A stretch of DNA of 64,000 nt from Patescibacteria group bacterium (GTDB lineage: Bacteria; Patescibacteriota; Patescibacteriia; Magasanikbacterales; JBBTQS01), in the NCBI GenBank assembly GCA_038065555.1, contig JBBTQS010000003.1, positions 26,266 to 90,265 of the forward strand, given 5' to 3'. Every line of letters starts with the position of its first letter. Within the stretch, counting starts at the first letter, position 1. Made by a program: the position numbers and the translations under genes. Under the pieces are notes generated by a model. It saw only the letters and a list, made by a program, of their open reading frames with translations. It did not search any database and was not told the origin of the DNA. Shown here in pieces: positions 10,785-64,000 of the stretch.

Positions 10785-10813
10785 AGCATACTTCGTGGGA
10801 CTTTTTTTGTCAA
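10785..10813 (-). promoter_or_regulatory. sigma70-type promoter (TTGACA-17-TATGCT) for TrmB paralog 2, apparently leaderless
   Basis: On the minus strand: -35 TTGACA (10808-10813), 17-nt spacer, -10 TATGCT (10785-10790). The ATG at 10776 lies about 8 nt downstream of the -10. Confidence 0.4.
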
Positions 10814-14034: not shown

Positions 14035-14211
14035 ATTTTGTCGGTAAAAGCGACAACGTTTTTATATCATTTTTGTCAATAAATGTAAAGTATTTTAGAT
14101 TTTCCGTCGGAAAGCCTGTCATTTATTCGCAGACCAGCTATAGTCACCGCACCTTACAAGGGCCAGACAGAGAAGTTCTGCCTGTGACACTGGTGAAAAT
14201 GGAGTCGAATC

Positions 14212-24935: not shown

Positions 24936-25190
24936 CAAAAACAAACGCCGACTGCTTGCGCATCGGCGTGTGTAGAGCGTTTTGTCGTGTGAGCATCCGA
25001 CCACGTAACCACCACGAAACATGGTACGAATGCTCGCGCGACAATCCCTACGAATTATCACGTCTCCCCGTTCTTTTCGATCTCTCAAGGCACTACTTTA
25101 GCACATCTACACTTTTTGTCAAGTAACAAGTTGACAAAATACGCCCATGCAACGGCTCGTATTTTTCATCTGTTTTTGCGCAAAACATCC

Positions 25191-25219
25191 TTGACGCACC
25201 CCCTGGCCCATGCTAGGCT
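25191..25219 (+). promoter_or_regulatory. sigma70-like promoter TTGACG-17-(TGc)TAGGCT with no downstream protein gene
   Basis: -35 at 25191-25196; extended -10 TGCTAGGCT at 25211-25219. The transcript would start near 25226 inside a 535-bp ORF-poor convergent spacer. Confidence 0.3.
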
Positions 25220-25225
25220 GAAATT

Positions 25226-25472
25226 GCCCGCTACATGGACCTTGGGCAAGACCAGATTTTGCTCCTCCAGAGCAGAATGTCTCGCGTAGCAAGAGGGAGA
25301 TGCATTGCAATGGGGAACGCATAGCAATTTTCCCTGTCCACGTTGTACCACAACCCAACCGGCAAAGCCGCGCGGAGTGAAGTGACCGAGCACTCGTGCC
25401 CAGTACCTTCACTTCCGCGCGGCTAACCGACTTCCAGAATGCTGTCACCTACGTGATGGTTTTTCTTATTTT
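25226..25472 (+). ncRNA. candidate small RNA of unknown class
   Basis: Promoter above; a 15-bp bulged hairpin at 25368-25423; terminal small hairpin GUCAC-cuac-GUGAU plus GGUUUUUCUUAUUUU at 25444-25472. I found no match to tmRNA, RNase P or SRP signature motifs. Confidence 0.25.
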
Positions 25473-26229
25473 AACTCTTTCGACCTGATTCTTTGCGCTG
25501 CGCCTTTGCTCCGACAAATGCGAAATGAAAGAGCGTGCGCAATGTTTGTGCGAGTCGCTTGCTCTCAATAATTGCCGAATACATTTTGCCCTCGAATGTA
25601 ACCAAATTGATTTTGTCTCCGTACACACCGATGTGTGCCTTGAACTCGCCGTCTTTGCCCGCCACATAGTAGCGCTCTCCACTATCACTACTCCCACTTG
25701 TACCACCATAGAGTCCACGCATCCGCACGGAACGCTTGCGTAGGATGTTACGCAGCGGCTGCAAATCTTGTGGTGTGAGCACGGTGAAGAGTGCGTCGGC
25801 ATCAGCGATCTCGTCCATTTCCTTGAAGTCCGTGTTCGCCCAATCTTCCATGATTGCACGTACACCTTCCTTGCCTTCGAAGAGGCGAACAATAGGCTTG
25901 TCCCCGCCAGCCTGCAGTGTCAGCTCTGGGAGCATCTGTTCGAGATCAGCAATCTTGCCAGCAACGTCACTATGGTACCGATGCGCGTACGCAATGAGCT
26001 TGTTAGGTTGTTCTGCTGCAAAATAGCGCTTCTTGCCACGCATCACATTGGTGAACAACCCGCGCTCTGTGAGCGCGTCCACTGCGGTATACACTGCCTG
26101 GCGCGACAGATGCGTTGCCTTCGTGAAATCCAGAATAGTGCCAGCTCCACGAGTGAGGCCAGCCACATAGACTTTGATTTCACTGTCCAATAGGCCCAGT
26201 GAGCGCAAAAGCGGAGCAAGATCTTTCAT
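25471..26229 (-). CDS. TrmB-family transcriptional regulator (paralog 4)
   Basis: Start ATG 26227-26229 (MKDLAPLLRSLGLLDSEIKVYVAGLTRGAGTILDFTKATHLSRQAVYTAVDALTERGLF). TrmB C-terminal domain. Confidence 0.8.
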   Translation of the reverse strand: MKDLAPLLRSLGLLDSEIKVYVAGLTRGAGTILDFTKATHLSRQAVYTAVDALTERGLFTNVMRGKKRYFAAEQPNKLIAYAHRYHSDVAGKIADLEQMLPELTLQAGGDKPIVRLFEGKEGVRAIMEDWANTDFKEMDEIADADALFTVLTPQDLQPLRNILRKRSVRMRGLYGGTSGSSDSGERYYVAGKDGEFKAHIGVYGDKINLVTFEGKMYSAIIESKRLAQTLRTLFHFAFVGAKAQRKESGRKS

Positions 26230-26340
26230 ATTTAGTACGTTTTTACAAGTGTAGCACATGGGGATAAAAACGCCAGAATAACAAAAAGACCCACCCGGAT
26301 GGTGAGGTCGCCAAATAATTCAAAGCGATCTCGCACTCAA

Positions 26341-26649
26341 TCACACTTCGTGATTGTTCAACATCTTTGCGATGTCATGGCGATGATCATCGGTGATCTG
26401 CATATGACGCAATAGCTGCTGGTTGATACCAGTTACTTTGGCTTCCAGACTTTCCAATCCATCACTCAAACGATCCTCGAGCTTGCTCAACCGAGTATTG
26501 GTCTCACAAAATCGATCCTCAACACGCTCAGCATATGCGTGGACGAATATAGACAATTCTGAAATTTGTTCAGTTATCTTATCAAATTTTTGATCAATGG
26601 TGAGTCGGACAGTGGATTGCATACTATAAATGATGGTGGTTAGTCCCAT
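26341..26649 (-). CDS. hypothetical coiled-coil protein
   Basis: ATG 26647-26649 (MGLTTIIYSMQSTVRL...), heptad-like, last gene of the fba operon. The longer track ORF overlaps fba and is rejected. Confidence 0.35.
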   Translation of the reverse strand: MGLTTIIYSMQSTVRLTIDQKFDKITEQISELSIFVHAYAERVEDRFCETNTRLSKLEDRLSDGLESLEAKVTGINQQLLRHMQITDDHRHDIAKMLNNHEV

Positions 26650-26704
26650 TGCACTCGGGAGTACACCACCGTACCGCCCAAGTTTTGTCACTGTCAATTG
26701 TGGA

Positions 26705-27613
26705 CTACTTCCCAGCGCTTCCGAACATGCGCAACTTCTTCTCGACAACTGCTTGCACTGCATCGCGAGCTGCACTCGTGTACACGCGTGGATCGAACTC
26801 GCGTGCGTTCTTCGCAAGCGCTGTGCGTAGCGCACTCGTATATGCCAATCGCAAATCAGTATCAATATTAATTTTGGTAATTCCCGTCTTGATTGCCTTC
26901 TTGATGTCTGCGTCGCTCATGCCTTCTGCTTTGGACAAGCCCATCTTCTTTGCGAGCTTTGGATCCACACTGCTTGCGCCGTGCAACACGAGAGGCACAT
27001 TCACTGCAGACGCGATTGCTGCGAGCCGCTTCACATCCAACTTCCCTGCAATTCCTGTGTGTTTGAATGCACCATGTGCTGTTCCCACAGACACAGCGAG
27101 TGCATCACACCCAGTCTTGTCCACGAATTCTGCGGCTTGCGCAGGATCGGTGTAGAACGCGTCGCGATTCTTCACACTAATCTTGTCCTCACGACCAGGG
27201 ATCGGTCCGAGTTCTGCTTCAACAGAGATCCCCGCGGCGTGCGCCTCGTCCACAATCTTCTTCACAGTCTTGATATTGTCCTTGAATGCGAGATGCGACG
27301 CGTCGATCATCACACTGGTGTAATACCCCGATGCAATCGCAGCACGCACGAGACGCACATCGTGACCATGATCGAGATGCACTACCACTGGCACCTTCAC
27401 CGACTGCGATGCAACCCACGAAATCACACCGAGATACACCATGCCTGCGTATTCGATCGCGCCACCACTTGTCTGCAATACCACAGGCGACTTCGCTCGC
27501 TCAGCCGCTGCAACAATTGCCTGCGCTGTCTCCATGGAACTGAAATTAAATGCACCAACTGCATACTTGTGCAGTTGGGCATGGGGCAAAATATCAGTGA
27601 GGGTTGCGCGCAT
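26705..27613 (-). CDS. fba: class II fructose-1,6-bisphosphate aldolase
   Basis: Characteristic HLDHG, 'GFTSVMIDASH'-like and C-terminal 'LVLHGASSV' motifs. Confidence 0.9.
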   Translation of the reverse strand: MRATLTDILPHAQLHKYAVGAFNFSSMETAQAIVAAAERAKSPVVLQTSGGAIEYAGMVYLGVISWVASQSVKVPVVVHLDHGHDVRLVRAAIASGYYTSVMIDASHLAFKDNIKTVKKIVDEAHAAGISVEAELGPIPGREDKISVKNRDAFYTDPAQAAEFVDKTGCDALAVSVGTAHGAFKHTGIAGKLDVKRLAAIASAVNVPLVLHGASSVDPKLAKKMGLSKAEGMSDADIKKAIKTGITKINIDTDLRLAYTSALRTALAKNAREFDPRVYTSAARDAVQAVVEKKLRMFGSAGK

Positions 27614-27624
27614 ACATGCTCCAA

Positions 27625-28602
27625 TTATGAAATTTTTTTCGGCGTAATCCCTTTGCCGTACGTGCGATAGAACGTCTCGATCTCACGACGATGCAAGAGA
27701 CCATCTTGCGGGCCAATATGCAGTATAACACTACTACTGTTAGCTGCGCCCCAAGTCAGCGCCGTCGGAAGGTCCTTACCCTCATTGAGCGCGGCAATGA
27801 CACCAACAGCAAACGAATCTCCCGCACCAGTTCGCTCAACTACTTTTGTGCGCAGAATCGGCATGAAGAACATGTCCTCGCCGTCATACGCAGTGGCACC
27901 GTTAGGACCATCCGTGATGAAGACCATTGCTGCACCGAGCTTGTAGAGCGCGCGCAAACTTTCTTTGATCGATTTCTTCCCCACAATACGAGCGGCCTCT
28001 TCGACGTTCACAAAGAGTGCGTGTGTGACTGCGATAACTTTCTTCACCTCGGTCACGCCTTCGAGAAATTGATACGTTCCAGGATTGTACGCAAGACGAG
28101 TGCCTGTGCGTTCCACATGCGCAATGACTTGTTTGTTGTACGCCATATGCCCCGCGGCGAGACTCGTGAAATACACCCACTTCGACCGTGGCAACTTGGG
28201 TAGTCGATACGTGCGTGGTGCGTGATACACGAGAATGGTGCGATCTCCCTGGAAGCGAATCACAGTCGACGCGTTCGTCGCATTCTTTCGATCACGCTCT
28301 ACGAACTCGCGCGAGACTTTGTTCTCAACCAGCGCTTGCACAATTGCATCTCCGCTCTGATCTACTCCGAGAATCGTATGAATCGCAGTGCGCAACCCGA
28401 GTCGCGCGCAGCCAATCGCGTTGTTCGCGGCGTTGCCGGCTACTTTTTGTACCATGTTCGAGACAGGCAGCTTGTCGCCGTAGCGCAACTGGAGCAAACA
28501 GTTCGTACGATCGATGGAGCATGCAAGTGATGCGTCTCCAATCTCAATGAGAGTGTCGATCGTAGCATCGCCCAATGAAATAATATCCAACATACACAAC
28601 AA
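27625..28602 (-). CDS. PfkB-family carbohydrate kinase
   Basis: Ribokinase-like motifs: 'GGNAANNA'-like (AGNAANNAIGCARLG) and C-terminal 'TGAGDSFAVGVIAAL'. Confidence 0.8.
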   Translation of the reverse strand: MLCMLDIISLGDATIDTLIEIGDASLACSIDRTNCLLQLRYGDKLPVSNMVQKVAGNAANNAIGCARLGLRTAIHTILGVDQSGDAIVQALVENKVSREFVERDRKNATNASTVIRFQGDRTILVYHAPRTYRLPKLPRSKWVYFTSLAAGHMAYNKQVIAHVERTGTRLAYNPGTYQFLEGVTEVKKVIAVTHALFVNVEEAARIVGKKSIKESLRALYKLGAAMVFITDGPNGATAYDGEDMFFMPILRTKVVERTGAGDSFAVGVIAALNEGKDLPTALTWGAANSSSVILHIGPQDGLLHRREIETFYRTYGKGITPKKIS

Positions 28603-28604
28603 AA

Positions 28605-29588
28605 CTATTTTTTTCGGACTACGGCGCGTGCTGCAGCAACAATATTCTTTGCTTGCATGCCGTAGAGCTCCAACAACTCATCCGGTGTTCCTGACTGACC
28701 AAACGTATCATGCATTCCAACAGGAATAATCGGTACAGGCATTGTCTGTGCAAGTGTTTCTGCCACTGCCCCAAAGAGACCTCCAGTAATTTGATGCTCC
28801 TCCACAGTCACAACACATCCTGTTTTTTTCACCGACGCGAGGAGTGTCTTCTCATCAAATGGCTTGAGACTAGGCATGTTGATGACTTCTGCACGAACCC
28901 CCGACTTGAGAAGTACCTGTGCCGCATGGAGTGTTTCGTACAACAGCGGACCACATGCAACAAGTGTGACATCCTCCCCCTGCGAAAATACTTCTGCCTT
29001 GCCAATAGCAAAGGGTGATTTCGCCGTGGTGATGACTGCAGTCTTCTCACGTGCAAATCGTACGTACACCGGGCCATCATACAACGCTGCTGCATGTATC
29101 GCCTTGCGTGTCTCTTCCATATCGCATGGTGCGAGCACCACCATGTTCGGCAGCACTCGCATAATCGCCATATCTTCAAGCGCCTGATGCGTTGCGCCAT
29201 CAGGCCCCACCGAAATCCCCGCATGCGCACCCATGATCTTCACATTCGTGTTGGAATAACACACAGAGACACGAATCTGATCCCAATTGCGTCCAGGCGA
29301 GAACACCGCATAACTAGAAATGAACGGGACAAACCCTTCTGCAGCCATCCCCGCTGCAATCCCTGCCATATTTTGTTCCGCAACACCTACTTCAATAAAT
29401 CGTTCTGGAAATTTCTCTCGAAACCAGTGCGAACGTGTGGACTCAGTGAGATCGCAACACAATACTGCGATATTTGGATTCAACTCCCCCGCCTCAACGA
29501 CACCATGGCCATAGCCATCACGCGTCAACCCATACTCAGGTTTGCTGAGGAGGTTTGGTGCCAAATGTTTTACCAGAGGAATGATCAT
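28605..29588 (-). CDS. tkt: transketolase, C-terminal (pyrimidine-binding) subunit
   Basis: Start ATG 29586-29588 overlaps the N-subunit stop (ATGA). Matches the Pyr and C-terminal domains of split transketolase. Confidence 0.85.
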   Translation of the reverse strand: MIIPLVKHLAPNLLSKPEYGLTRDGYGHGVVEAGELNPNIAVLCCDLTESTRSHWFREKFPERFIEVGVAEQNMAGIAAGMAAEGFVPFISSYAVFSPGRNWDQIRVSVCYSNTNVKIMGAHAGISVGPDGATHQALEDMAIMRVLPNMVVLAPCDMEETRKAIHAAALYDGPVYVRFAREKTAVITTAKSPFAIGKAEVFSQGEDVTLVACGPLLYETLHAAQVLLKSGVRAEVINMPSLKPFDEKTLLASVKKTGCVVTVEEHQITGGLFGAVAETLAQTMPVPIIPVGMHDTFGQSGTPDELLELYGMQAKNIVAAARAVVRKK

Positions 29589-29589
29589 A

Positions 29590-30447
29590 TTATTCGTGTT
29601 CGCTCCGAACTTTGCCACCGAGGGTTCGCAATTGATGCAACGCGCGCTTTGCTTCGTCCTTCGCAGGAGTTTTGCCATGCCAATTGTAATCGAACTCCAT
29701 GAAATCTACCCCCTTACCTGGAATCGTGTGCGCAATAATTGCTACCGGACGTTCATAGATAGCGCGTGCTTCATCACAGGCATCAACAATTTGGCGAATA
29801 TTGTGCCCATCAATCTCAATCACGTGGAAGTTGAACGCCGCGAACTTCGCAGCGAGCGGCTCAATAGGCGCCACAATCTCTGTGTTACCGTCGATTTGAA
29901 TATTATTGCGATCAACAATGACCGTGAGACGATGCAGCGGCTTGTTGCCAGCGAGCATCATTGCTTCCCAGTATTGTCCCTCCTGAATTTCACCATCTGA
30001 TGTGAGCAAAAATGTCTCATACGTTCGTTTGCGCATTTGTCCCGCAAGCGCCACACCCACAGCAACCGACGTACCTTGTCCCAACGGACCGCCAGTATTC
30101 TCAATACCAGGCAACGCACCGCGGTGTGGATGTCCTTGCAATCGCGTATGCAATTTGCGCAGTGTCTTCAACTCCTTCTTTGTAAAATACCCCGCATGCG
30201 CAAGTGTTGCGTACCACACCGGACAAATATGACCATTGCTGAGGATTACACGATCACGATCTTCCCAATCAGGCTTCTTCGCATCGTGATGCAAAATATG
30301 AAAGTAAAGCGCTGTAAAAATATCCGCCATCCCAAGTGGCCCAGCCGTGTGCCCTGATCCTGCAGCAACCAACATCTCGATAACATCTTTGCGAATCGCA
30401 GTTGCAATTCGCTCGAGCTGTTGCACTTTGGAATCGTGAATGGGCAT
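29590..30447 (-). CDS. tkt: transketolase, N-terminal (TPP-binding) subunit
   Basis: Start at internal ATG (MPIHDSKVQQLE...). TPP motif 'GSGHTAGPLGM... GDGE(I)QEG' and 'HxxGKTP'. Confidence 0.85.
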   Translation of the reverse strand: MPIHDSKVQQLERIATAIRKDVIEMLVAAGSGHTAGPLGMADIFTALYFHILHHDAKKPDWEDRDRVILSNGHICPVWYATLAHAGYFTKKELKTLRKLHTRLQGHPHRGALPGIENTGGPLGQGTSVAVGVALAGQMRKRTYETFLLTSDGEIQEGQYWEAMMLAGNKPLHRLTVIVDRNNIQIDGNTEIVAPIEPLAAKFAAFNFHVIEIDGHNIRQIVDACDEARAIYERPVAIIAHTIPGKGVDFMEFDYNWHGKTPAKDEAKRALHQLRTLGGKVRSEHE

Positions 30448-37019: not shown

Positions 37020-40000
37020 TTACGCTGTCGGCTCAGTTGCAGCCGGTGCAGACTCTTGGTTGTACGCTGCAGTTGCTGACTTGAACCCTCGAGCTGCAGC
37101 TGCAAGTTCCATAGCGCTGACTGCGCCTGTGAACCCAGTACCTGCTGGGATCTTGCGTCCGATGATAACGTTCTCCTTGAGACCTTCGAGGTAATCAACC
37201 TTGCCAGTAACAGCTGCGTTGATAAGTACCTTTGCAGTTTCTTGGAACGAAGCAGACGAGAGGAAGCTCTGCGTCGAGAGGGACACGCGCGAGATACCGA
37301 GGAACAATTCCTTCACGGCTGCGTGCTTGCCACCCTTTTCTACTTCTGCGTTGGACGCACTCCACTGCGCCTTTTCGATCACTTCACCAGGGATGAGATC
37401 GGTGTCACCTGCGTCTTCTACAAGTACGCGGGAGAACATCGAGCGAATGATGATCTCAATGTGTTTGTCATTGAGCTTCTGACCCTGCGAAGCGTAGATA
37501 TCCTGAATTTCCTTGAGGATATAGCGCTGTACTGCTTCCTTGCCCTTGAGTTCGAAGAGCTGCTGGAGATCCATGTGACCTTCGGTAAGCGCATCTCCAA
37601 CATTGACGAGATCACCATCTGCAACGAGAATCTTGAAGCCCAGTGGGATAATGTACTCCTTGCTCGTAGAACCCGTACCAGAAAGCGTAACTGCCTTCTT
37701 CTGTACGCGAACCGATCCAGCAATCGGAGCCATGATCTTGGTGCCATCAGCCTTCTCGATGAGGAGATCGCCTACTGCAACACTCTTGCCATCAATTGCA
37801 TGCACTGTGTCCTTGTCTGCGAGTGGGAATACATCTTCGCGTACGCCATCGTATGCAACGTTGACGATCTTCTGACCGCGGCGGCCTTCGAAGATACGCT
37901 TGCCGTTGTGTTCGATAACTTTGCCTTCTGCTGATTCAATGTGTGCGATACCACCTACTTCTGCAACATACGCCTTCTTCTTCGGCGAACGAGCTTCGAA
38001 GAGTTCGTCTACGCGTGGAAGACCCTGCGTAATATCCTGTCCTGCAACACCACCAGTATGGAAGGTACGCATGGTGAGCTGTGTACCTGGCTCACCGATA
38101 GACTGTGCTGCAATGATACCAACTGCTGTACCCATTTGTACTGGCTTGTTGTGCGCCATATCCACGCCGTAGCAGCGTCCACAAACACCCTTCGGAAGGA
38201 GACACTTGAATACGGTGCGAACATGCACTTCTTGTACACCGGAGGTCTCAAGTTCGCGAGCATGTGGCTCGAGAATCATGCTACCAGCAGTGACGATGAT
38301 CTGCTTGGTTTCTGGATTGATAACATCAGCCATTGTGTAGCGACCTTGTACACGCTCAGAGAGCGTCTCGCCCATTTCGCGCTCAGACTCTTCGCGGGTC
38401 ACGATAACGCCGTCGAGTGTGCCACAGTCCTCTGCCAACACCACAACATCTTGTGCAACGTCTACAAGACGTCGCGTGAGATATCCTGCGTTAGCGGTAC
38501 GAAGTGCGGTGTCAGTAAGACCCTTACGTACACCGTGAGACGAGATAAAGAATTCAAGTACAGAGAAGCCTTCTTTGAAGTTACCCTTTACTGGAAGTTC
38601 GATAATGTCACCGGCTGGGTTACTTACGAGACCCTTCATACCAATCACCTGACCGAGCTGTCCCCATGAACCACGAGCACCAGATTCAATCATGGCGAAC
38701 ACTGGACCAAATGGGTGGAGCGAGTTGCGGTTGTGCTTGAGTACGCGATCTTTGATGTCAGTCCACACACCAATAATCTTGGTGTAGCGCTCGTTCTGTG
38801 TGAGGAGACCGTCCTGGTATTGTTCTTCGATCTCTGCCACAGAATCATCACCCTCATCAAGAAGCGCTTGCTTCTCAGGAACGCGTGGGAAGTCGTCCAT
38901 ACCGAGCGAGTATCCAGACTTGGTAACGTACTTGAATCCAAGATCCTTGATACCATCGAGCATGTGCGCTGTGTTCTCAACGCCTTCTTTTTCGAGTACG
39001 AGACGAACAATGTTACCGAGCTTCTTTGCAGTTACTACTTCGTTGTACCAAGGGAGCGATGCTGGCAACACGTCGTTGAATGCGATGCGACCAATGGTCG
39101 TCACCATACGTGTTGGAACACCTTCGCCAATACGCGTGCAATCTGTGCCGTCGAAGTAGACTTCGATAGGCTGCTGCAAGAGAATGATGCGCATCTTGTA
39201 CGCAAGACGAGCTTCCTGAACCGACGAGAAACGCTTCATCTTCTCCTTCGGCACATCTGCTTCTACTGGGCGCATGGTCGTCATGTAGAACGCACCCAAT
39301 ACAATATCCTGCTTTGGTGTTGCAATTGGCTGACCTGTAGCTGGCTTCAAGATGTTGCGCTCTGCAGCCATGAGATGCTCTGCTTCCCACTTTGCCTGTT
39401 CGGTAAGTGGTACGTGCACAGCCATTTGGTCACCGTCGAAGTCGGCGTTGAACGCGGTACATACGAGCGGATGAATGCGGATTGCCTTACCTTCGATAAG
39501 TCGAGGCTTGAATGCCTGAATACCGAGACGGTGAAGGGTTGGAGCACGGTTGAGAAGTACGCGCGTATTTGCTGTCACTTCTTCGAGAATGTCCCACACC
39601 TCGTCATGATCTGCTTCGATGTAGCGAGATGCAGAGCGAACGTTGTGCGCATGTCCACGCTTGATGATTTCACTCATCACAAACGGCTTGAAGAGTTCCA
39701 ATGCCATGCGCTTTGGAATACCACATTCGTTCATCTGCATGTTCGGCCCTACAACGATTACCGAACGACCGGAGTAGTCAGTACGCTTACCGAGCAAGTT
39801 CTGGCGGAAACGTCCTTGCTTACCCTTGAGAAGATCCGCGATGGAGCGCAATTTGCGGCGCTGACCAGTCGATGCAGTTACGGTCTTGCTGCGACGTGCA
39901 TCGTTGTCGATGAGCGCGTCGATAGCTTCCTGCAACATGCGCTTCTCGTTGCGTACGATAACTTCAGGCGCGTTCAATTCGAGGAGGCGCTTGAGGCGGT

Positions 40001-41003
40001 TGTTGCGGTTGATCACGCGGCGATAGAGATCGTTGAGGTCAGAAGTAGCAAAACGGCCACCATCAAGAGCTACCATCGGACGCAAATCTGGTGGAATCAC
40101 CGGAATCACGTTGAGAATCATCCACCAAGGAGAGATCTCGTTGATGTTGAGTGACTTGAGGAGCTTGAGACGGCGAATCAACTTGTCGCGCTTCGCAGTC
40201 TTGTTGTCCTTCACTTCTTCTTCAAGTGCTTCGATCGTCTTCGGAATATCGAGACGCTTCAAGAGATACTGAATTGCGTCAGCTCCGATTTGTGCGTCGA
40301 AGATATGTCCATAGCGCATGGACAATTCCTGGTAGTCGTTCTCCGAGAGAATGCGCATTGGCGCAAGCTCCTTGATTTCGCGCTCAGTGAGTACGTAGTC
40401 TTCTTCGAGTGCTGCAAGCGCTTCTTCGCCTTCTTTTTCTACTGCAGTTGCGTCAGCCTTCTTCTCTGTTGCTGCTTCGGCTTTTTGCTTGTACTCATTG
40501 GTGATCTGTTTGCGCTTGCTCTTGTACTCTTCCTTGAGCATTTCGAGTGTCTCTTCCTGCAACTTGGTGTCTACATCGGTAACAATGAAGTTCGCAAAGT
40601 AAATCACCTTCTCCAATGTCTGGATCGAGAGGTCGAGAATCGTACCGATCTTGGAAGGGATCGAGCGAAGGAACCAAATGTGGGCAACAGGTGCAGCAAG
40701 TTCGATGTGACCCATGCGCTCGCGGCGAACCAACGAGTGCGTCACTTCTACTCCACACTTGTCACACACGATTCCTTTGTAGCGAATCTTCTTGTACTTA
40801 CCACAGTAACATTCCCAGTCCTTCGTAGGTCCGAAGATTTCTTCGGCGAAGAGTCCACCTTTTTCTGGCTTCTGTGTGCGGTAGTTGATGGTTTCTGGCT
40901 TTGCAACCTCACCACTACTCCAACCGCGGATAACTTCTGGAGATGCGACGCGCAATCGAATCGCGTCGAATTCCATGGTGTGCATTGTATCGTTATGCAT
41001 CAT
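37020..41003 (-). CDS. rpoC: DNA-directed RNA polymerase subunit beta'
   Basis: 1327 aa. Conserved 'NADFDGDQMAVHVP' Mg-binding motif and zinc finger CxxC...CxxC near the N-terminus. Confidence 0.95.
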   Translation of the reverse strand: MMHNDTMHTMEFDAIRLRVASPEVIRGWSSGEVAKPETINYRTQKPEKGGLFAEEIFGPTKDWECYCGKYKKIRYKGIVCDKCGVEVTHSLVRRERMGHIELAAPVAHIWFLRSIPSKIGTILDLSIQTLEKVIYFANFIVTDVDTKLQEETLEMLKEEYKSKRKQITNEYKQKAEAATEKKADATAVEKEGEEALAALEEDYVLTEREIKELAPMRILSENDYQELSMRYGHIFDAQIGADAIQYLLKRLDIPKTIEALEEEVKDNKTAKRDKLIRRLKLLKSLNINEISPWWMILNVIPVIPPDLRPMVALDGGRFATSDLNDLYRRVINRNNRLKRLLELNAPEVIVRNEKRMLQEAIDALIDNDARRSKTVTASTGQRRKLRSIADLLKGKQGRFRQNLLGKRTDYSGRSVIVVGPNMQMNECGIPKRMALELFKPFVMSEIIKRGHAHNVRSASRYIEADHDEVWDILEEVTANTRVLLNRAPTLHRLGIQAFKPRLIEGKAIRIHPLVCTAFNADFDGDQMAVHVPLTEQAKWEAEHLMAAERNILKPATGQPIATPKQDIVLGAFYMTTMRPVEADVPKEKMKRFSSVQEARLAYKMRIILLQQPIEVYFDGTDCTRIGEGVPTRMVTTIGRIAFNDVLPASLPWYNEVVTAKKLGNIVRLVLEKEGVENTAHMLDGIKDLGFKYVTKSGYSLGMDDFPRVPEKQALLDEGDDSVAEIEEQYQDGLLTQNERYTKIIGVWTDIKDRVLKHNRNSLHPFGPVFAMIESGARGSWGQLGQVIGMKGLVSNPAGDIIELPVKGNFKEGFSVLEFFISSHGVRKGLTDTALRTANAGYLTRRLVDVAQDVVVLAEDCGTLDGVIVTREESEREMGETLSERVQGRYTMADVINPETKQIIVTAGSMILEPHARELETSGVQEVHVRTVFKCLLPKGVCGRCYGVDMAHNKPVQMGTAVGIIAAQSIGEPGTQLTMRTFHTGGVAGQDITQGLPRVDELFEARSPKKKAYVAEVGGIAHIESAEGKVIEHNGKRIFEGRRGQKIVNVAYDGVREDVFPLADKDTVHAIDGKSVAVGDLLIEKADGTKIMAPIAGSVRVQKKAVTLSGTGSTSKEYIIPLGFKILVADGDLVNVGDALTEGHMDLQQLFELKGKEAVQRYILKEIQDIYASQGQKLNDKHIEIIIRSMFSRVLVEDAGDTDLIPGEVIEKAQWSASNAEVEKGGKHAAVKELFLGISRVSLSTQSFLSSASFQETAKVLINAAVTGKVDYLEGLKENVIIGRKIPAGTGFTGAVSAMELAAAARGFKSATAAYNQESAPAATEPTA

Positions 41004-41014: not shown

Positions 41015-44000
41015 TTAGCGTGAACGATCTTCATCGTATGCCCCCATCTCCTCCTCTTCGGTGAGTGCGGTATACGTGTCGCCATCGCGCTTGAGCAATT
41101 CAACATCGAGGCACAGACCCTTCAATTCACGTGTAAGTACGTGGAAGGATTCTGGGATGTTGATACGCGTGATGGATTCGCCCTTAATAATTGATTCATA
41201 CGCCTTGCTGCGTCCTGGAACATCGTCTGACTTGATCGTGAGGATTTCCTGCAAGGTATTTGCAGCACCGTACGCTTCGAGCGCCCATACTTCCATTTCT
41301 CCGAAACGCTGACCACCGAACTGCGCCTTACCACCAAGTGGCTGCTGCGATACGAGTGAGTATGGTCCGATAGAACGCTGGTGAATCTTGTCTTCAACCA
41401 TGTGGTTGAGCTTGAGCACGTAGGTGTAACCAACCGTCGTCTTGTGGTCAAACGGTTCACCAGTACGGCCGTCGAGCAACTGCGCCTGTCCATCTACTGG
41501 AAGTCCTGCGCTAGCAAGCAACTCCTTGATCTGTTCTTCCGTAAGTCCATTGAGTGGTGGCGTTGCTACGCGGTGACCGTGTGCATTTGCTGCGAGACCT
41601 GCGTGGTTCTCGAGAATCTGACCGAGGTTCATACGCGAGATAACACCCAGTGGCGAAAGAATGATGTCCACTGGCGTACCGTCTGGCAAAAATGGCATGT
41701 CCTCTACTGGAACAACGCGTGAGATAACACCCTTGTTACCGTGACGACCTGCAACCTTGTCACCTACCTGCACCTTGCGCATGTCTGCAACAGTGACTTG
41801 GAGCTGCTTGATAACACCTGGCTGCAACTTGTCGCCGTCGTCTGCGCTGAACGTCTTGATCTCAATAACTTTGCCGTGCTCACCGTGCTCGAGATACTTC
41901 GAAGAGTCGCGCACGTCGCGTGCCTTCTCACCGAAGATTGCGCGGAGCAATTTTTCTTCTGCTGAGAGTTCGGTTTCGCCCTTTGGTGTGATCTTACCAA
42001 CAAGGATGTCACCAGACTTCACCTCAGCACCGATGCGAACTACACCTTCGGAATCGAGGTTGTGCAACTTTTCTTCCGAAACGTTTGGAATGTCGGATGT
42101 GACCATTTCAGGTCCGAGCTTGGTTTCGCGAACATCAACCATGTAGTCCTCAATGTGGATCGAGGTAAATCGGTCGTTGTGTACGAGACGCTCAGAAATG
42201 ATGACAGCATCTTCATAGTTGTATCCATCCCATACCATGTATGCGACGAGTACGTTCTGTCCGAGTGCGAGTTCACCGTTCTCTGTCGAAGGTCCGTCTA
42301 CAAGCGCGTCACCAGCCTTCACCTTTTGACCAGGGCGCACAATTGGGCGCTGGTTGATCGCAGTGGAGTGGTTGCTGCGCAAATATTTGTTGAGCGAGAT
42401 TTTCTTTTCGCCGCCCTTCTTGTACTTCATGGTTACTTGCGTACCGTCTACCGACGCAACTTCACCATCTTCGGTCGCAAAGAGTACGTGGCCGGAATAT
42501 CGTGCCGCAGTCTTCTCCACACCTGTTCCAACAAATGGAGCGTCTGGAGTGATACATGGTACTGCCTGACGTTGCATGTTCGTTCCCATGAGCGCACGTG
42601 TAGCGTCATCGTGCTCGAGGAATGGAATCATCGAAGTAGCAATCGAGATAATCTGGTTGCTCGAGACATCCATGTAGTCGATGTTGGTGACGTCTTCGAA
42701 TCCTGGCTCACCGTGGCGGCGAACTGGAGCTTTTTCGTCCACGAAGAATCCCTTCTCATCAACAGGTGTCGTTGCAATGGTTGTAACCGACTTCTCTTCT
42801 TGGAACGCGTTGAGATACACGATCTCATCCGTCACGCGTGCACGGCCCTTCTCCTGTACTACCTTGCGGTATGGAGTCTCGATAAATCCGTAGTCGTTCA
42901 CAATTGCGTAGGACGCAAGGTGACCTACGAGACCAATGTTCGGTCCTTCAGGAGTTGCAATAGGACAAATACGTCCGTAGTGCGTAGGATGCACGTCACG
43001 AACATCGAATCCTGCGCGATCGCGCGAAAGTCCACCAGGTCCAAGAGCCGAGAGACGACGCTTGTGCTCCAACTCAGCAAGTGGGTTGGTCTGGTCCATG
43101 AACTGCGAGAGCTGCGAGCTCATGAAGAATTCGCGAACGGCACCAATCACTGGGCGCGCGTTGATGAGCTTGCTCGGCGTGAGTCCTTCGATCTCATACG
43201 TGCTCATGCGATCCTTCACGATGCGCTCCATGCGAGAGAGACCGATGCGGAAACGATTCTGAACCAATTCTCCAATCGCGCGGATACGGCGGTTGCCAAG
43301 GTGGTCAATATCGTCTGCCTCTTCCTGAGAGACGTTGAGACGGATCACTTCGCGAATAATGCGGAGGATGTCTTCCTTGGTGAGAATACGTGTGGTGCGT
43401 GCTGCCTTGCCCTCGAGATCTGCCTCTACTGTTGGCATGGAAAAACGCTCATTCATCTTGTAGCGACCTACACGACCCAAGTCGTATCGATCGAAGTTGA
43501 AGAACATCGCGTGGATGAGCGAGCGAGCGTTGTCTACGGTTGCAAGATCACCTGGGCGAATACGCTTGTACACTTCCTGGAGACCTTCGTCTTCGTTGCT
43601 TGCAGAGTCCTTCTTGAGGGTTGCTTCTACGTAGTCAATCTGTGGGTGCGTGTTGACATCCTTCAAGAGCTGACGGATTTCCTCAGATTCAGAGTAGCCA
43701 AACGAACGCAACAATGTTGTTGCTGCTACTTTGCGCTTGCGATCTACCTTGACCCAGAGCACGTTGTTGCTATCTGTCTCGATTTCGATCCAGGCACCGC
43801 GGTTCGGGATAATCTTTGCACCGTAGAACTTGCGGCCACGAACGTTCTCCGAAGTGAAGAACGCTCCTGGAGAACGAATAAGCTGCGAAACAATGACACG
43901 CTCGATACCATTCACAATGAATGTACCGCGGTCTGTCATGATAGGTACGTCGCCAAGATATACTTCCTGTACCTTCTCGTCCTTTGTGCGATTGTTCACG

Positions 44001-44293
44001 AGACGTGTCTTGACGCGAAGTGGTGCCTCGAACGTAATGTTTTTCTTGCGGCACTGCATTTCGTCGAACTTCGGCTCATCGAGGTAGTAATCCTCGAACG
44101 AAAGCGCCAAATCACGACCAGTGAAGTCCTTGATCGGGGAAATTTCCTCGAACAATTCGCGGATCCCCTTGTCGAAGAACCACTTGTACGACGTGTTTTG
44201 GATCTGAATAAGATCCGGAGTCTCCATAGCTGGGAGAATTGAAGTGAAATACTTCCGTTCTGCCGCCATGTTGCGGTTGCGCTTGTACTGCAT
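41015..44293 (-). CDS. rpoB: DNA-directed RNA polymerase subunit beta
   Basis: About 1092 aa; start taken at ATG 44291-44293 (MQYKRNRN..., which aligns with Bacillus RpoB N-terminus QYGRHRQRRSY). The track ORF begins 2 codons earlier at TTG. Confidence 0.95.
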
Positions 44294-44518
44294 AGGCAAG
44301 GGAATAAATACAAAAAGTCACCCGAAGACTAATCGGGATCTTTCTAAAATTCTCGCAAATTTTGGACAAATTTCTGCAAGGTTGACATGGAGATTTCCTT
44401 GCACGCAGAGGGTCCAGATGGTCCTCCGCGAGTCCGCACTACTATACGGCACCAATCTGTCTATGTCAAATGAACGAATGACACAGTTTATCCACAGGTA
44501 GAGATGCCTAGCGGGTAC

Positions 44519-59546: not shown

Positions 59547-60296
59547 CTACGCGTTGTCTAGAGCAAGAGTAACCGAACGTTCGAGTGCGAAGAACACATC
59601 AGATTGCTTGAGCGCATGCCGACGCGGACGTGCAAATGGTACATCAAATCGCGCCGCGATTTTTGCTGGCTGCGGACTCAATACGAGTACTTCATCTGCG
59701 AGGAACACTGCCTCGCCGACATCATGCGTTACGAAGACAATAGTCATGCGCAGATCATCGCACAGCTCCGCAAGGAACTCCTGCATCTGGGAACGCGTTT
59801 GACTATCGAGTGCACCAAACGGTTCATCCATAAGCAGCACGCGTGGCTCAGTCACAAGTGCACGAGCTAACGCAACACGCTGTTGCATCCCTCCAGAAAG
59901 TGCATTCGGATAATACGATGCAAAAGCCGTGAGATGCGTGCGCTCGAGATATGTCGCCACACGCTCGGCAATCACTGCGTCGTCCATGTTCTGCAACCGC
60001 AAACCAAATGCAATGTTCTCGTACACTGTGAGCCACGGGAACAATGTATTCTCCTGGAACACCATGCCCCGCGATACATCTGGGCCGGTGACGGACTCTC
60101 CTCCAACCACCACAGTACCTGTGTATTCCTGATCAAGCCCTGCGATGATTCGCAAGAGCGTTGATTTGCCGCAACCGCTTGGCCCGACAATCGCTACGAA
60201 CTTTCCCTCAGCAATGGTGAGCGAAAAATCATGGATTACGTCGACACGTTTGCCACCGTGCAATTGGGTTTTTGTAATTGATGTGAGACTAAGCAT
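59547..60296 (-). CDS. ABC transporter ATP-binding protein (NitT/TauT-type)
   Basis: ATG 60294-60296. Walker A 'GPSGCGKST', signature 'LSGGMQQRV' and Walker B 'LLMDEPFGALD'. Confidence 0.85.
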   Translation of the reverse strand: MLSLTSITKTQLHGGKRVDVIHDFSLTIAEGKFVAIVGPSGCGKSTLLRIIAGLDQEYTGTVVVGGESVTGPDVSRGMVFQENTLFPWLTVYENIAFGLRLQNMDDAVIAERVATYLERTHLTAFASYYPNALSGGMQQRVALARALVTEPRVLLMDEPFGALDSQTRSQMQEFLAELCDDLRMTIVFVTHDVGEAVFLADEVLVLSPQPAKIAARFDVPFARPRRHALKQSDVFFALERSVTLALDNA

Positions 60297-61044
60297 GTGA
60301 TTTCTCTGACCAAGGGAAAAGCGCGCGATACGACCAACGAAACGCAGCATCAGTGAACAACCCGAGAACACCAATCACAATAATGACCGCGAAGATTTGA
60401 TCCGTGCGCAGGAATCGCTGTGATGCAATGATCACAGAACCAAGTCCTACCGACGCACCAACCATTTCTGCCGCTGTCACGAAGGTCCATGATGAACCGA
60501 TCATGATGCGACTCGCATCCCAAATTGCTGGTAGTGCTCCAGGCAATGCGACGCGCGAAATGACCTGTATCCGACTCGCACCCAACGTGCGCGCAACACT
60601 AGACAACACACGACGCTGATTACCGATCGTATCTGCAATGAGCACGGTGAGATATGGCGCAGTGGCAATGAAAATAATTACGATCTTTTCGAGCTCACCA
60701 ACACCGAACCACACGATCGCAAGTGGAATGAACACCACAGGTGGAACATACCGCAAGCCAGACAACAATGGTTCGATGAGTGCAGCGCATGTGCGCGATG
60801 CACCCAGCGCCACACCAACCGGAAGCGCGATGACCACAGACAATACAAACCCCAACGCCACACGTCCCACACTCGCCGCAATATCCATGAGCAATGCGTC
60901 GTTCATGAACAAAGATACGAGTGCCTGAGCGACAAGCATTGGCCCAGGCAGGAAGAGCGGCGATACCACAGAGCTCCACGATACAATCGCCCACGTCGCA
61001 ACAAAAAGGAGCAGCGCGGTGGTGGTTAAGATTTTTGTACGCAT
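60289..61044 (-). CDS. ABC transporter permease (SsuC/TauC-type)
   Basis: Six TM helices with an EAA-like loop 'ASRTCAALIEPLLSGLRYVP'. Confidence 0.8.
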   Translation of the reverse strand: MRTKILTTTALLLFVATWAIVSWSSVVSPLFLPGPMLVAQALVSLFMNDALLMDIAASVGRVALGFVLSVVIALPVGVALGASRTCAALIEPLLSGLRYVPPVVFIPLAIVWFGVGELEKIVIIFIATAPYLTVLIADTIGNQRRVLSSVARTLGASRIQVISRVALPGALPAIWDASRIMIGSSWTFVTAAEMVGASVGLGSVIIASQRFLRTDQIFAVIIVIGVLGLFTDAAFRWSYRALFPWSEKSHA

Positions 61045-61065
61045 ACTGCTCCTTTCGTCGATGAT

Positions 61066-62037
61066 TTAGAGAAGTTCTTCGATAATGGAGGTGTCAACAA
61101 TAGACTTCGCGTCGAGTCTCGTCTTCGTGAGACCGAGATCGAACCAGAGCGTACTCGCCTTGTCCAAGAGATTCACTGCTGAGTATTCACCTTTGGTAAG
61201 CACTTCGGCATTGTCCTGCAATGACATCCAACGGAACGTTGGAATTTGATCGCGAACATCCTGTTCCGAGATTGCGAGACCTTTTGCGATGACAGCATAG
61301 CTCTCATCTGGATTAGTAATGATGTATTCACGTGTTGCAAAAATCGAACGCATCAACGCGACAATCTCTGCACGACGCTCCTGGAGCACTTCTTCGCGGA
61401 CAATCACGATGTCGAGAATCGGTGATGTCTTCGTACTCGCAATAACATGACCACCCTTGCGCTCACTCGCCTTCGAAAGCCATGGCTCCCACGTCACAGC
61501 AGCGTCCACTTTTCCAGCAACAAATGCAGCACCAGCATCAGACGCAATCATATTCACCGTCTGCACGTCCTTCGTACTCATTCCCTGCTTCTCGAGCATC
61601 AGTGCAAGGAAAAAATGTGACGGAGAACCTTCTTCATACGCAACCTTTTTCCCGCGCAAATCCGCGAGTGAGTTGATTCCTTCTGCAGCAATGATGCCAT
61701 CAGCACCGAGGCTCGCATCATATGAACCAACAACTTTTACTTTCACACCCGCATCATGCAAAGTCGCAACTGTCTCAGACGTGAGCACAAGCACATCAAT
61801 CTTGCCGCTCGCGAACAATTGCTTGCCCACTGCGCCGTCATCGTAGTTAGTGTGCACGACCTTGAGGCCGTTTGCCTCGTAGATTCCTTTTTCCTGCGCA
61901 ACGTTAAAGATACCGTTGCCGATCCAAGGATTGAGACCGATGCGTAACGGTTGTGCTGCGGTGTTGTCTTTCGCAAACCACACACCCAAGCCGACAACGA
62001 CCACGAGAGCCGCAATAATCACAGCAATTTTTTTCAT
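61066..62037 (-). CDS. ABC transporter substrate-binding protein (NMT1/SsuA-like)
   Basis: Signal/anchor 'MKKIAVIIAALVVVVGLGVWF' then a periplasmic-binding fold. First gene of the three-gene transporter operon. Confidence 0.75.
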   Translation of the reverse strand: MKKIAVIIAALVVVVGLGVWFAKDNTAAQPLRIGLNPWIGNGIFNVAQEKGIYEANGLKVVHTNYDDGAVGKQLFASGKIDVLVLTSETVATLHDAGVKVKVVGSYDASLGADGIIAAEGINSLADLRGKKVAYEEGSPSHFFLALMLEKQGMSTKDVQTVNMIASDAGAAFVAGKVDAAVTWEPWLSKASERKGGHVIASTKTSPILDIVIVREEVLQERRAEIVALMRSIFATREYIITNPDESYAVIAKGLAISEQDVRDQIPTFRWMSLQDNAEVLTKGEYSAVNLLDKASTLWFDLGLTKTRLDAKSIVDTSIIEELL

Positions 62038-62144: not shown

Positions 62145-62504
62145 TTATCCTCTTTTGTAGCCACGAGCAACCATGTCAGTCTCGTTGAGGTACTCCTCCA
62201 ATTCATCAAGCAGCACGTTGATCCCACCACACGGACCAGCGAACTCCCCGTCGCGCCTAATGAACTCCCTGAGCGCGGTCGGCCTGGACTCATCATTCAC
62301 ACCGAGGAATTTGCGATAGTAGAGATGCGCCCCGATTTGTCCAACGGCGTAGGCGAGCCTCACCACGAGATAGTGAGGCACACGACCTCCACGATGCTCC
62401 GGGCAGTTCTCGTTCAGACACAGACCGAGATCCTCCATCTCCGGGCCGCCGTCATCAATTAGCAACCTGCTGATCAACTCTTTACGCGTCCTGCTCATGC
62501 TCAT
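62145..62504 (-). CDS. hypothetical protein
   Basis: ATG 62502-62504 preceded by AAGGAGAA (spacer 4 nt). 119 aa, Cys-containing (CLNENCPEH... CGG). Confidence 0.45.
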   Translation of the reverse strand: MSMSRTRKELISRLLIDDGGPEMEDLGLCLNENCPEHRGGRVPHYLVVRLAYAVGQIGAHLYYRKFLGVNDESRPTALREFIRRDGEFAGPCGGINVLLDELEEYLNETDMVARGYKRG

Positions 62505-62636
62505 GTTGTTCTCCTTGTCGTTTGGTTGTCGTTCCGTTGCACAGTATGACATAATCACACTTTTTAACAACGGAAATATAGTCCAAAAAATCACAAATAT
62601 CTATATTTAGACAAAGGTAAGCAATTCAAAGTGCTA

Positions 62637-62680
62637 TTTTTGTCAGAATCATTGACAAAAATAGTCCAATGTCGTATACT
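62637..62680 (+). promoter_or_regulatory. promoter with operator-like palindrome for TrmB paralog 5
   Basis: Perfect IR TTTTTGTCA-gaatcat-TGACAAAAA (62637-62661) overlapping -35 TTGACA (62652-62657). 17-nt spacer, then -10 TATACT (62675-62680). ATG at 62689, so effectively leaderless. Confidence 0.5.
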
Positions 62681-62688
62681 TTGTTGGT

Positions 62689-63423
62689 ATGCAAACCCCA
62701 GACCTCTCTCCTATCGGTGTTGGTGACAAAGCCACATCCATCTACCTCACCGCCTTGTCTCTGGGCACTGCCAGCGTCCAACAAATCGCTACTAAAGCTG
62801 GGATCAAGCGTCCGACCGCCTATCTCCACATTGAAGAACTACTTCGAGAAAATCTTCTCGAGCGCATCCGCATTGGCAAAAAGGATTTTTATCGTGCGTG
62901 CGATCCGCAGCAACTCAAAAAACGCGCCGAGACTGCGCTTACGCACATCAACACGATTCTCCCCGAACTCCAGCAACTCCACGCAACTGGTGGCGCACGT
63001 CCAACTGTTCGAATTTTTGAAGGCGAAGTTGGACTCAAGGAAATCTATGCACAACTACAACACGCCAACAGCATTCGCTTCATCTCCGACCTCGCTGCAA
63101 CAGAATCACTCTTTCCCAAATCTGTTAACGACATTGCAGCTGGCATTGCGGAACAGCAAATTCGTACACGTGAGCTGATTGCGAATACTCCAGAAACCAA
63201 ACGCGCATCAAAACGATTCGCAGCCATTGCAGGCAAAACCTACACCTCGCGAGTTTTCGCACATGGAGTAATCAAAAATGACTCCGCAATCTTCGGCAAC
63301 ACGGTCGCGTTCTTCCGCATCAACGAACACAATCTTTTTGTAATCGTCATCGAAGATGCAACAATCGCTGAGACAATGAAAACACTTTTCGATCACGCCT
63401 GGGAACAAGCAACAACGTTCTAA
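62689..63423 (+). CDS. TrmB-family transcriptional regulator (paralog 5)
   Basis: HTH 'ATSIYLTALSLGTASVQQIATKAGIKRPTAYLHIEELLRENLL'; TrmB C-terminal domain. Confidence 0.8.
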   Translation: MQTPDLSPIGVGDKATSIYLTALSLGTASVQQIATKAGIKRPTAYLHIEELLRENLLERIRIGKKDFYRACDPQQLKKRAETALTHINTILPELQQLHATGGARPTVRIFEGEVGLKEIYAQLQHANSIRFISDLAATESLFPKSVNDIAAGIAEQQIRTRELIANTPETKRASKRFAAIAGKTYTSRVFAHGVIKNDSAIFGNTVAFFRINEHNLFVIVIEDATIAETMKTLFDHAWEQATTF

Positions 63424-64000
63424 ATCCGAGCCTTCGGATCCTGCGCCAAATACTTCCACAGCTGACCAAAAATAACACGCTGACACTGCGCAAGTTCGCG
63501 CGACACTATGCGAATCGCATACTGCTCGCGCCACGATACAATGAGCACAGTATCATTATAAATAATGATTTCAGGCGTGAATTGATCTGCAACGTCTGGC
63601 AACACCATCGCCTCGCGCATCTCCTGCTTGTTGTGCGAAAATTGTTTCAAGTTCTCAGCATTGCGCGGAAAAATACCACGACCCAGAATCCCCGCCTTCA
63701 CGCGCCGCGCATAATATTCTGGAAAAAAATTCGGCAACGCCTCGTGCATCGTCTCGAAATTCGCATACGCGTGATATACATCCTTCGCGTTGAGCGTATC
63801 CTCATACGCCTCACGCATTCCCTTCTCACCTTCAAAAAATTCCATCTTCGGTTTTTCTGGTCGACGCAGCTGCAATAGCGACGCCAATTCAGGCAGCATC
63901 TCGCGCACCTTCTCCTCCTGCCGTGCAATCTTGTTCTGCACCTCACGCTTTTCATTTTCCAAATACGACAACAGCGACCGTGGATCAGACGCATGGAAAA
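63420..64000 (-). CDS. TrmB-family regulator (paralog 6), C-terminal part; N-terminus beyond the window edge
   Basis: Aligns with the post-HTH region of the other paralogs (...FEGEKGMREAYEDTL...; ...IIYNDTVLIVSWREQYAIRIVSRELAQ...). Convergent with paralog 5 and overlaps it by 4 nt. Confidence 0.6.
   Translation of the reverse strand, partial: FHASDPRSLLSYLENEKREVQNKIARQEEKVREMLPELASLLQLRRPEKPKMEFFEGEKGMREAYEDTLNAKDVYHAYANFETMHEALPNFFPEYYARRVKAGILGRGIFPRNAENLKQFSHNKQEMREAMVLPDVADQFTPEIIIYNDTVLIVSWREQYAIRIVSRELAQCQRVIFGQLWKYLAQDPKARI

Follow-up and report, generated by a model that had tools for sequence, protein, structure and literature searches.

In the window, that is, the whole 64,000-nucleotide stretch of DNA that was analysed, from a metagenome-assembled genome of the Patescibacteria (candidate phyla radiation, CPR), positions 62689-63423 of the plus strand code for paralog 5, a 244-aa regulator of the TrmB family. 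Divergent from it, on the minus strand, is a gene for a 119-aa protein of unknown family (62145-62504), which is the first of a unit running into the transporter genes at 60289-62037; these code for an NMT1/THI5-type substrate-binding protein (61066-62037) and an ABC permease (60289-61044), also on the minus strand. The DNA between the two divergent genes contains, at 62634-62664, a perfect 12-7-12 inverted repeat composed of CTATTTTTGTCA (62634-62645), the spacer gaatcat and TGACAAAAATAG (62653-62664). The first-pass annotation of this DNA had described a perfect 9-7-9 inverted repeat at 62637-62661; the repeat is there, but it was understated, the arms being really 12 nt long. The 9-mer TTTTTGTCA on which that description was based is found at 62637-62645 on the plus strand and at 62653-62661 on the minus strand, 7 nt apart, and the core half-sites within the arms are TGTCA (62641-62645) and TGACA (62653-62657). 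The overlap of the palindrome with a -35 hexamer, claimed at the same time, is also borne out, as TTGACA (62652-62657, plus strand) falls in the right arm. This hexamer is separated by a 17-nt spacer from a -10 hexamer, TATACT (62675-62680, plus strand), and the resulting promoter, TTGACA-17-TATACT, agrees with the sigma-70 consensus at 11 of 12 positions. Since the ATG at 62689 comes 8 nt after the -10 box and no Shine-Dalgarno sequence is present between the two, the paralog 5 mRNA is probably leaderless or nearly so. The same intergenic region also contains a direct repeat, AAATATAGTCCAA / AAAAATAGTCCAA (62574-62586 and 62657-62669). Beyond the -35 box, the promoters of paralogs 5 and 2 have the stretch TTGACAAAAA[T/A]AGTCC in common (62657-62669 and 10796-10813) despite the 22% identity of the two proteins; the AGTCC portion shows no clear conservation in the paralog 5 orthologs.

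The PF01978 winged helix was detected above its gathering cut-off (25.6 bits) in five genes of the window, with 33.5 bits for paralog 5 and 31.6-54.7 bits for paralog 1 (5919-6662, plus strand, 54 bits), paralog 2 (9988-10776, minus strand), paralog 3 (13303-14034, minus strand) and paralog 4 (25471-26259, minus strand, with a likelier start at 26229). Paralog 6 overlaps 63420-64000, and its start is located beyond the end of the window. The paralogs are 22-29% identical to paralog 5, and two residues of the recognition-helix region, Arg41 and Tyr45, are invariant across all six. An AlphaFold (AF2) model of paralog 5 built from an alignment (pLDDT 88) comprises a winged helix, then residues 74-101 as one long helix, and an alpha/beta domain at the C-terminus, and thus has the predicted overall fold of TrmB, in which a winged helix is joined through a long dimerisation helix to such a domain. 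Foldseek comparison of this model with the PDB gave full-length matches to TrmBL2 (5bpd, E = 4e-14) and to the TrmB of P. furiosus (3qph, E = 1e-9), the latter alignment covering part of the 3qph chain with a TM-score, normalised to the target, of 0.31; the C-terminal domain was also similar to the nuclease NucT. In a profile search of PDB sequences the top match was TrmB (3qph, E = 8e-6, residues 4-146). The Pfam matches of paralog 5 were confined to N-terminal DNA-binding families of the helix-turn-helix type (residues 15-80); at E <= 0.01 none represented an effector domain in the C-terminal part. TrmB in the strict sense (TrmB, TrmBL1 and Tgr, of about 340 aa) is defined by a sugar-binding subdomain, which the 244-aa paralog 5 does not have. 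Judging from the model, paralog 5 is a member of the TrmB family with a TrmBL2-like architecture and without the sugar-binding subdomain of the 340-aa sensors.

The conservation of the palindrome was examined by aligning 38 homologs of paralog 5 and fetching 49 loci from GTDB species genomes, with a coverage of 6.7 kb per genome. The ortholog set consisted of 18 loci (L005-L022), with 36-54% protein identity to paralog 5, assigned in their records to Magasanikbacteria, Doudnabacteria, Kaiserbacteria, Paceibacterota and other lineages of the CPR. The exact core TGTCA-N7-TGACA occurs once per locus, always upstream of the ortholog, in 17 of these 18 loci, and the remaining one (L010) has TGTCA-N7-TAACA. 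When gaps of 0-15 nt between the half-sites were scanned, N7 alone was enriched in the ortholog loci, and each of the 19 sites compared has this gap. Each of the ten core positions carries 1.7-2.0 bits of information, while spacer and flanks vary and are merely A/T-biased. The centre of the palindrome is placed 37-40 nt from the start codon in 12 of the 19 sites; the outlying sites are found 57-62 nt from the annotated start in four loci and 156 nt from it in one. The right arm reads TTGACA in 17 of 19 sites. The left arm, on the opposite strand, is usually CTGACA or ATGACA, which makes no second -35 box, and its conservation therefore goes beyond promoter function alone. Regarding density, 17 sites were counted in 107 kb of ortholog loci versus 2 in 413 kb of control CPR TrmB loci, and the window has one in its 64 kb. 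From this comparison of sequences, the conserved core is the phylogenetic footprint of a dimeric DNA-binding protein, and the idea of an operator-like element over the -35 box, put forward from the window alone, gains from the persistence of the core upstream of the orthologs in 17 of 18 other species.

The palindrome is probably the operator of the adjacent paralog 5 regulator, acting in negative autoregulation by occlusion of the -35 box. According to this proposal, a winged-helix dimer of paralog 5 would bind both half-sites, TGTCA and TGACA, which have a centre-to-centre distance of 12 bp. Because the right half-site is the -35 hexamer itself of the strong, leaderless-type promoter of paralog 5, the bound dimer would exclude RNA polymerase and the protein would limit its own synthesis, until a ligand or signal acting via the C-terminal domain released it from the operator. 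Paralog 5 is taken as the putative binder from its co-location with the site, and we infer both the repression upon binding and the existence of an effector. An inverted repeat at or near the promoter, which is the pattern of TrmB-family operators, was found at this gene as a 12-7-12 repeat over the -35 box, with its core recurring in the ortholog loci. The finding of a distinct conserved palindrome before the own gene in groups 1, 3 and 6 and in Peregrinibacteria is likewise the pattern expected of autoregulated paralogs. On the other hand, a dimer site over a -35 box can also activate, in the manner of class II activators, which counts against autorepression. The outlying distances of some sites from the start codon and the poor conservation of synteny around the orthologs also speak against the proposal. 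The type of mechanism, autorepression from a site over the regulator's own -35 box, is a textbook one. With 6.7 kb covered per genome, there may be further sites of a wider regulon, or another binder.

The other TrmB groups provide a comparison. The first-pass annotation had postulated a family-wide operator, and what survives of it is that group-specific palindromes of related design precede their own genes, although the element common to them is not the 9-mer TTTTTGTCA. Similarly, the proposed coincidence of the operator with the -35 box holds for the paralog 5 group only; in groups 1, 3 and 6 the sites adjoin or cover the start codon. As far as their sequences tell, paralogs 1, 3 and 6, together with unrelated groups, have each their own conserved palindrome on a TGT…ACA frame, at differing promoter positions. 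The intergenic DNA of the window (6 kb) has 4 perfect TGnnn-N7-nnnCA palindromes versus 6 in its 58 kb of coding DNA, and three of the four intergenic ones are immediately upstream of paralogs 1, 3 and 5. The palindrome of paralog 1, TGTCTAAATACTAGACA (TGTCT-aaatact-AGACA, 5897-5913), ends 5 nt before the ATG at 5919 and is a member of the motif found in the orthologs of this gene. Among 80 metagenome loci compared for paralog 1 (63 of them distinct), TG[T/A]Cn-N7-nG[A/T]CA has a constant location, immediately ahead of the start codon or covering it, in 38 of the 63 distinct loci, versus 18 further matches to TG[T/A]C-N9-G[A/T]CA elsewhere in the same loci (169 kb), and many of the remaining loci have one-base variants of the motif. 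An RNA hairpin was considered for the paralog 1 motif and rejected, since common hybrid half-sites (TGTCT…CGTCA) break the base pairing and keep the half-site pattern, which favours recognition by a protein.

For paralog 3, the conserved palindrome is TGTCG-gtaaaag-CGACA (14039-14055), which ends 4 nt before the minus-strand ATG at 14034. The form [T/C]GTCG-N7-CG[A/G]CA is present in four of six loci counting the window, being kept in L134, L135 and L139 and not in L137 and L140. The longer TTGTC-N9-GACAA occurs exactly twice in the window versus 0.09 expected, at paralog 5 and at 14038-14056 before the start of paralog 3. Another example is the paralog 6 group, in whose orthologs TTGTCGA-N7-TCGACAA directly precedes the ATG; the genome of the window has a degenerate copy. 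No TG…CA palindrome was found before the paralog 4 gene or before its operon. Paralog 4 is the last gene of a same-strand cluster (25471-30447, minus strand) with the order transketolase N and C halves, PfkB kinase, fructose-bisphosphate aldolase, a 102-aa ORF and the TrmB gene, and of the paralogs in this DNA it alone is clearly linked to sugar metabolism; just upstream of its annotated start is a terminator-like hairpin. A TrmB group of Peregrinibacteria/Peribacteria has a strictly conserved TGTAGAA-N4-TTCTACA adjoining a TATAAT (-10) box, 40-108 nt upstream of the matched gene (L029, L030, L031, L032, L035 and L040); two of these loci, L031 and L040, contain a second TrmB paralog about 2.3 kb downstream. 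The loci L023, L038 and L039 carry TGTTG-N8-CAACA. Insert-like repetitive sequences separating the gene from its upstream region were observed at about 296-442 of L009, 1420-1500 of L134 and 490-600 of L140, as GC-rich inverted repeats in L009 and as reiterated aatctgtgtaat-like units in L134 and L140; in L009 and L134 they part the gene from the conserved palindrome.

These other groups bear on the best of the alternatives, namely that the palindrome is a conserved operator bound by another TrmB paralog (cross-regulation) or by a global dimeric regulator, with the paralog 5 gene as a target. This seems unlikely to us, even though several observations speak for it. The Arg and Tyr of the recognition-helix region are common to all six paralogs, TGTCA-N7-TGACA is one of the forms that the motif of the paralog 1 group can take, one locus (L068) has exactly this sequence before a paralog 1 ortholog, and the left half of the paralog 1 palindrome, TGTCTAAAT, appears at 62605-62613 in the intergenic region of paralog 5. 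However, in 17 of 18 species the site accompanies the ortholog of paralog 5 and does not occur elsewhere in those loci, a global regulator should show further sites in the 107 kb, and the half-sites of the paralog 1 group are variable whereas the paralog 5 site is invariant. Cross-regulation among the paralogs, suggested with the first description, is conceivable in view of the invariant Arg and Tyr, the overlapping vocabulary of half-sites and the paralog 1-type half-site just mentioned. The latter lies on the minus strand, in the paralog 5/119-aa intergenic DNA, without a matching right half; TGTCTAAAT has 2 copies in the window versus 0.26 expected.

A second alternative keeps paralog 5 as the binder of the palindrome and has it activate (positive autoregulation), or act mainly on the divergent unit of the 119-aa gene and the NMT1-type ABC transporter; we regard it as quite unlikely. 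Proteins of the TrmB family can activate from upstream of a promoter (PMC4158304), but at paralog 5 the half-site replaces the -35 box instead of being placed upstream of it, and a promoter already near consensus argues against a need for activation. With respect to the divergent genes, one is found upstream in most loci, and in L011, L012 and L013 the ortholog of paralog 5 has the same divergent NMT1-type transporter as in the window. Nevertheless, the divergent neighbour differs in most species, and the best divergent promoter candidate (TTGTTA-16/17-CATACT, by eye) is roughly 80-100 nt away from the palindrome. Within the preferred reading, in which paralog 5 represses its own gene from the palindrome, the divergent 119-aa gene is possibly a second target of the operator. 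Its product had no Pfam family and no homolog in the ortholog loci. Conservation of the gene neighbourhood was tried as a clue to function and discarded, since only the NMT1 ABC transporter recurs, in a few loci, and the neighbours otherwise differ. In L135 (374-2223) it is a paralog 3 ortholog, not one of paralog 5, that is divergent from an NMT1-type ABC transporter, so the association with this transporter is not exclusive to the paralog 5 group.

The recurrence of the 9-mer was at the origin of the idea of a shared operator. The copies reported upstream of paralog 2 (10804-10812, plus strand) and paralog 3 (14070-14078, plus strand), and the one-mismatch version TTTTTGTCT (5893-5901) at the paralog 1 palindrome, are all present as cited, and two further exact copies were found at 4975-4983 (minus strand) and 25113-25121 (plus strand). 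The window thus has 6 copies versus 0.73 expected from shuffles, and all 6 are intergenic, where 0.056 would be expected under a first-order Markov model (6 kb of intergenic DNA). Four of the six are in the 12% of intergenic DNA located upstream of TrmB genes (P = 0.003), or three of five when the palindrome is counted as one event (P = 0.015). Within the window, therefore, the 9-mer is more frequent upstream of TrmB genes than in random intergenic DNA, the comparison on which the original suggestion had been made to depend. As individual operators, the copies at paralogs 2 and 3 did not hold up. At paralog 2 the sequence is a -35 box followed by an A-tract (TTGACAAAAA, 10804-10813, minus strand), part of TTGACA-17-TATGCT with the ATG at 10776 only 8 nt further on, that is, a second promoter of the leaderless type; its closest partner, TGTAA, stands at N8 and has one mismatch, so that TGTAA-N7-TGACA was rejected as a site. 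No paralog 2 orthologs appeared among the matches listed in the protein searches. At paralog 3, the isolated TTGACAAAAA (14070-14079, minus strand) has no N7 partner and is absent from L134, L135 and L139; there is no evidence of function for this lone half-site, unconserved in the orthologs, and the conserved site is the one at 14039-14055, missed earlier. The recurrence of TTTTTGTCA would then reflect a common vocabulary of half-sites and -35 boxes (TGTC/GACA cores with A/T-rich flanks), not copies of one operator, given that the other TrmB groups have palindromes of their own. The copy at 4975-4983, which reads TGACAAAAA on the plus strand, is 21 nt before the ATG of a 108-aa ORF (5005-5331) without Pfam family, and shows no partner half-site and a poor promoter geometry.

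From the same data it could be argued that there is no operator at all, the symmetry having arisen by chance on a -35 box and its A-tract, with the 9-mer as a promoter style of AT-rich intergenic DNA. The fact that TGACAAAAA contains most of a -35 box, the nature of the paralog 2 copy and the lack of conservation of that at paralog 3 all agree with this, which is nonetheless highly improbable. It is already contradicted by the orthologs, in which the left arm and the N7 spacing are kept in 17 of 18 species; the number of intergenic 9-mers is far from its expectation of 0.056, and an artefact of shared recent ancestry is opposed by the 36-54% protein identity and by the unconserved flanks. In addition, when all TTGACA hexamers of the window were listed, seven other promoter-like ones had no AAAA after them, so TTGACAAAAA was rejected as a general promoter style. 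A role of the element as a nucleic-acid structure (terminator, RNA hairpin or cruciform) is scarcely credible: as single-stranded DNA it does fold into a 12-bp hairpin (-9.7 kcal/mol, z = -5.2), but its stem is A/T-rich and lies between divergent genes, contrary to an intrinsic terminator, which requires a G+C-rich hairpin with a T-run after it downstream of a gene, 62450-62750 has no terminator-like site and the palindrome no T-run, Rfam gives no match at the palindrome (tRNA-Gly alone reaches threshold in the window), the element is upstream of the predicted transcription start, conservation is confined to the 5-nt cores without the stem length being kept, and the hybrid half-sites of the paralog 1 group break pairing and keep the TG[T/A]C pattern.

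Several known systems resemble the proposed autorepression of paralog 5 from its -35 box. The operators of the TrmB family are inverted repeats such as TACT-N3-AGTA, the Thermococcales glycolytic motif (TGM, TATCAC-N5-GTGATA) and TACT-N7-8-GAGTA, which cause repression from a position over or after the promoter and activation from one upstream of it (PMC4158304). The TGM is bound by TrmBL1 in P. furiosus and by Tgr in T. kodakarensis, and autoregulation has been proposed for Tgr (PMC4158304). It is similar in design, being a 17-bp inverted repeat served by the same protein family; written as TATCA-N7-TGATA, it has in our own comparison the same 5-7-5 frame as TGTCA-N7-TGACA, with four of five bases common per half-site. 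The site of paralog 5, TGTCAG-N5-TTGACA, is however not an instance of the TGM, as it differs at half-site position 2 and at the inner base. The TGM is archaeal and controls about 30 sugar-metabolism genes from BRE/TATA promoters through binders with a sugar-binding domain, whereas paralog 5 belongs to a CPR host, has 244 aa and a sigma-70-type promoter, and its single known site is at the regulator's own gene. Other examples are the TrmB acting at the malE promoter in P. furiosus / T. littoralis (TACT-N3-AGTA) and the TrmB of H. salinarum (TACT-N7-8-GAGTA), in which a dimer on the promoter palindrome blocks polymerase recruitment and the gene is beside an ABC transporter operon (PMC4158304). 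The gene of paralog 5 is also near an ABC transporter, but the half-sites of these TrmB proteins differ from its own and their sugar effectors are known. The transporter next to paralog 5, moreover, is not one for sugars but belongs to the NMT1/THI5 type, and only a minority of the ortholog loci have it.

In structure, paralog 5 matches best over its full length with TrmBL2, the chromatin protein of Thermococcales (5bpd, 5box; E = 4e-14, about 250 aligned columns), which with 260 aa is of similar length and also devoid of the sugar-binding subdomain. The binding of TrmBL2 extends over coding as well as intergenic DNA and shows little sequence specificity (PMC4158304). By analogy, such low specificity in the closest structural relative would count against an operator for paralog 5; unlike TrmBL2, however, the TrmB proteins of CPR are each tied to a sharply defined palindrome. 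Outside this family, bacterial autorepressors with an operator over the -35 box, for example those of the MarR family, are dimeric winged-helix proteins that have a palindromic operator over promoter elements of their own gene. They differ in protein family and, beyond the winged helix, in fold, and the MarR matches in Pfam fall below the cut-off (18.4 versus 24.6 bits). Finally, the class II sites of CRP (TGTGA-N6-TCACA) and FNR (TTGAT-N4-ATCAA) are centred near -41.5 and go with a weak -35 box. The paralog 5 site does not fit among them, having a gap of 7 in 19 of 19 cases, TGTCA as its core and the consensus TTGACA as -35 box.

To our knowledge, next to nothing is known of how CPR bacteria, which are mostly uncultured and have few regulators, control their transcription. 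A literature search found no paper linking TrmB with CPR/Patescibacteria, and the characterised TrmB-family proteins that it found were all archaeal. TGTCA-N7-TGACA is a sharply defined and widely conserved motif tied to one ortholog group of regulators, with analogous motifs for three others, and it offers a first testable operator code for these poorly known bacteria, which would allow in vitro tests of binding without cultivation and the prediction of regulons in thousands of metagenome-assembled genomes. That the design is nearly identical to that of the archaeal TGM bears on the evolution of the family and its sites across domains. As a broader and doubtful proposition, CPR bacteria might run much of their sparse regulation via expanded TrmBL2-like paralogs that use one operator grammar and form a cross-regulating network. 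If this were true, the sites would be 17-19-bp TGT…ACA palindromes in which inner bases and spacing set the specificity of each paralog; the grammar would be the same as that of the TGM, regulator and operator design having been inherited or transferred together between archaea and CPR; and the targets would include genes other than those for TrmB proteins, for example through N10 sites over the -35 box at a predicted rpoBC promoter and at a candidate small RNA.

These N10 sites deserve a separate description. The exact sequence TGTCA-N10-TGACA was found in the window only at 44464-44483 and 25117-25136, and the two may represent a second class of sites with a different spacing. The one at 25117-25136 belongs to an inverted repeat, TTTTTGTCA-N10-TGACAAAAT (25113-25140), within 535 nt without a called gene (24936-25470) between a SpoU methylase gene and the end of paralog 4, and a minus-strand promoter, TTGACA-16-TAAAGT, has the left arm of this repeat as its -35 box. 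Close by, a perfect TGTTT-N7-AAACA palindrome (25171-25187) adjoins a plus-strand promoter-like sequence, TTGACG-17-TAGGCT (by eye). The predicted folding of both putative transcripts of this region is unusually good (z = -4.2 and z = -4.4), and a terminator-like hairpin followed by a T-run (by eye) marks the end of the leftward one. Rfam returned no family in 24936-25470, the gap at 24880-25500 giving sub-threshold chance matches only, and the region possibly codes for one or two unknown small RNAs under TrmB-type control. At 44464-44483, one arm of the site provides the -35 box for TTGACA-17-TATAGT, a predicted promoter on the minus strand upstream of two genes (41015-44299, 1094 aa, and 37020-41003, 1327 aa) that are putative rpoB and rpoC by size only.
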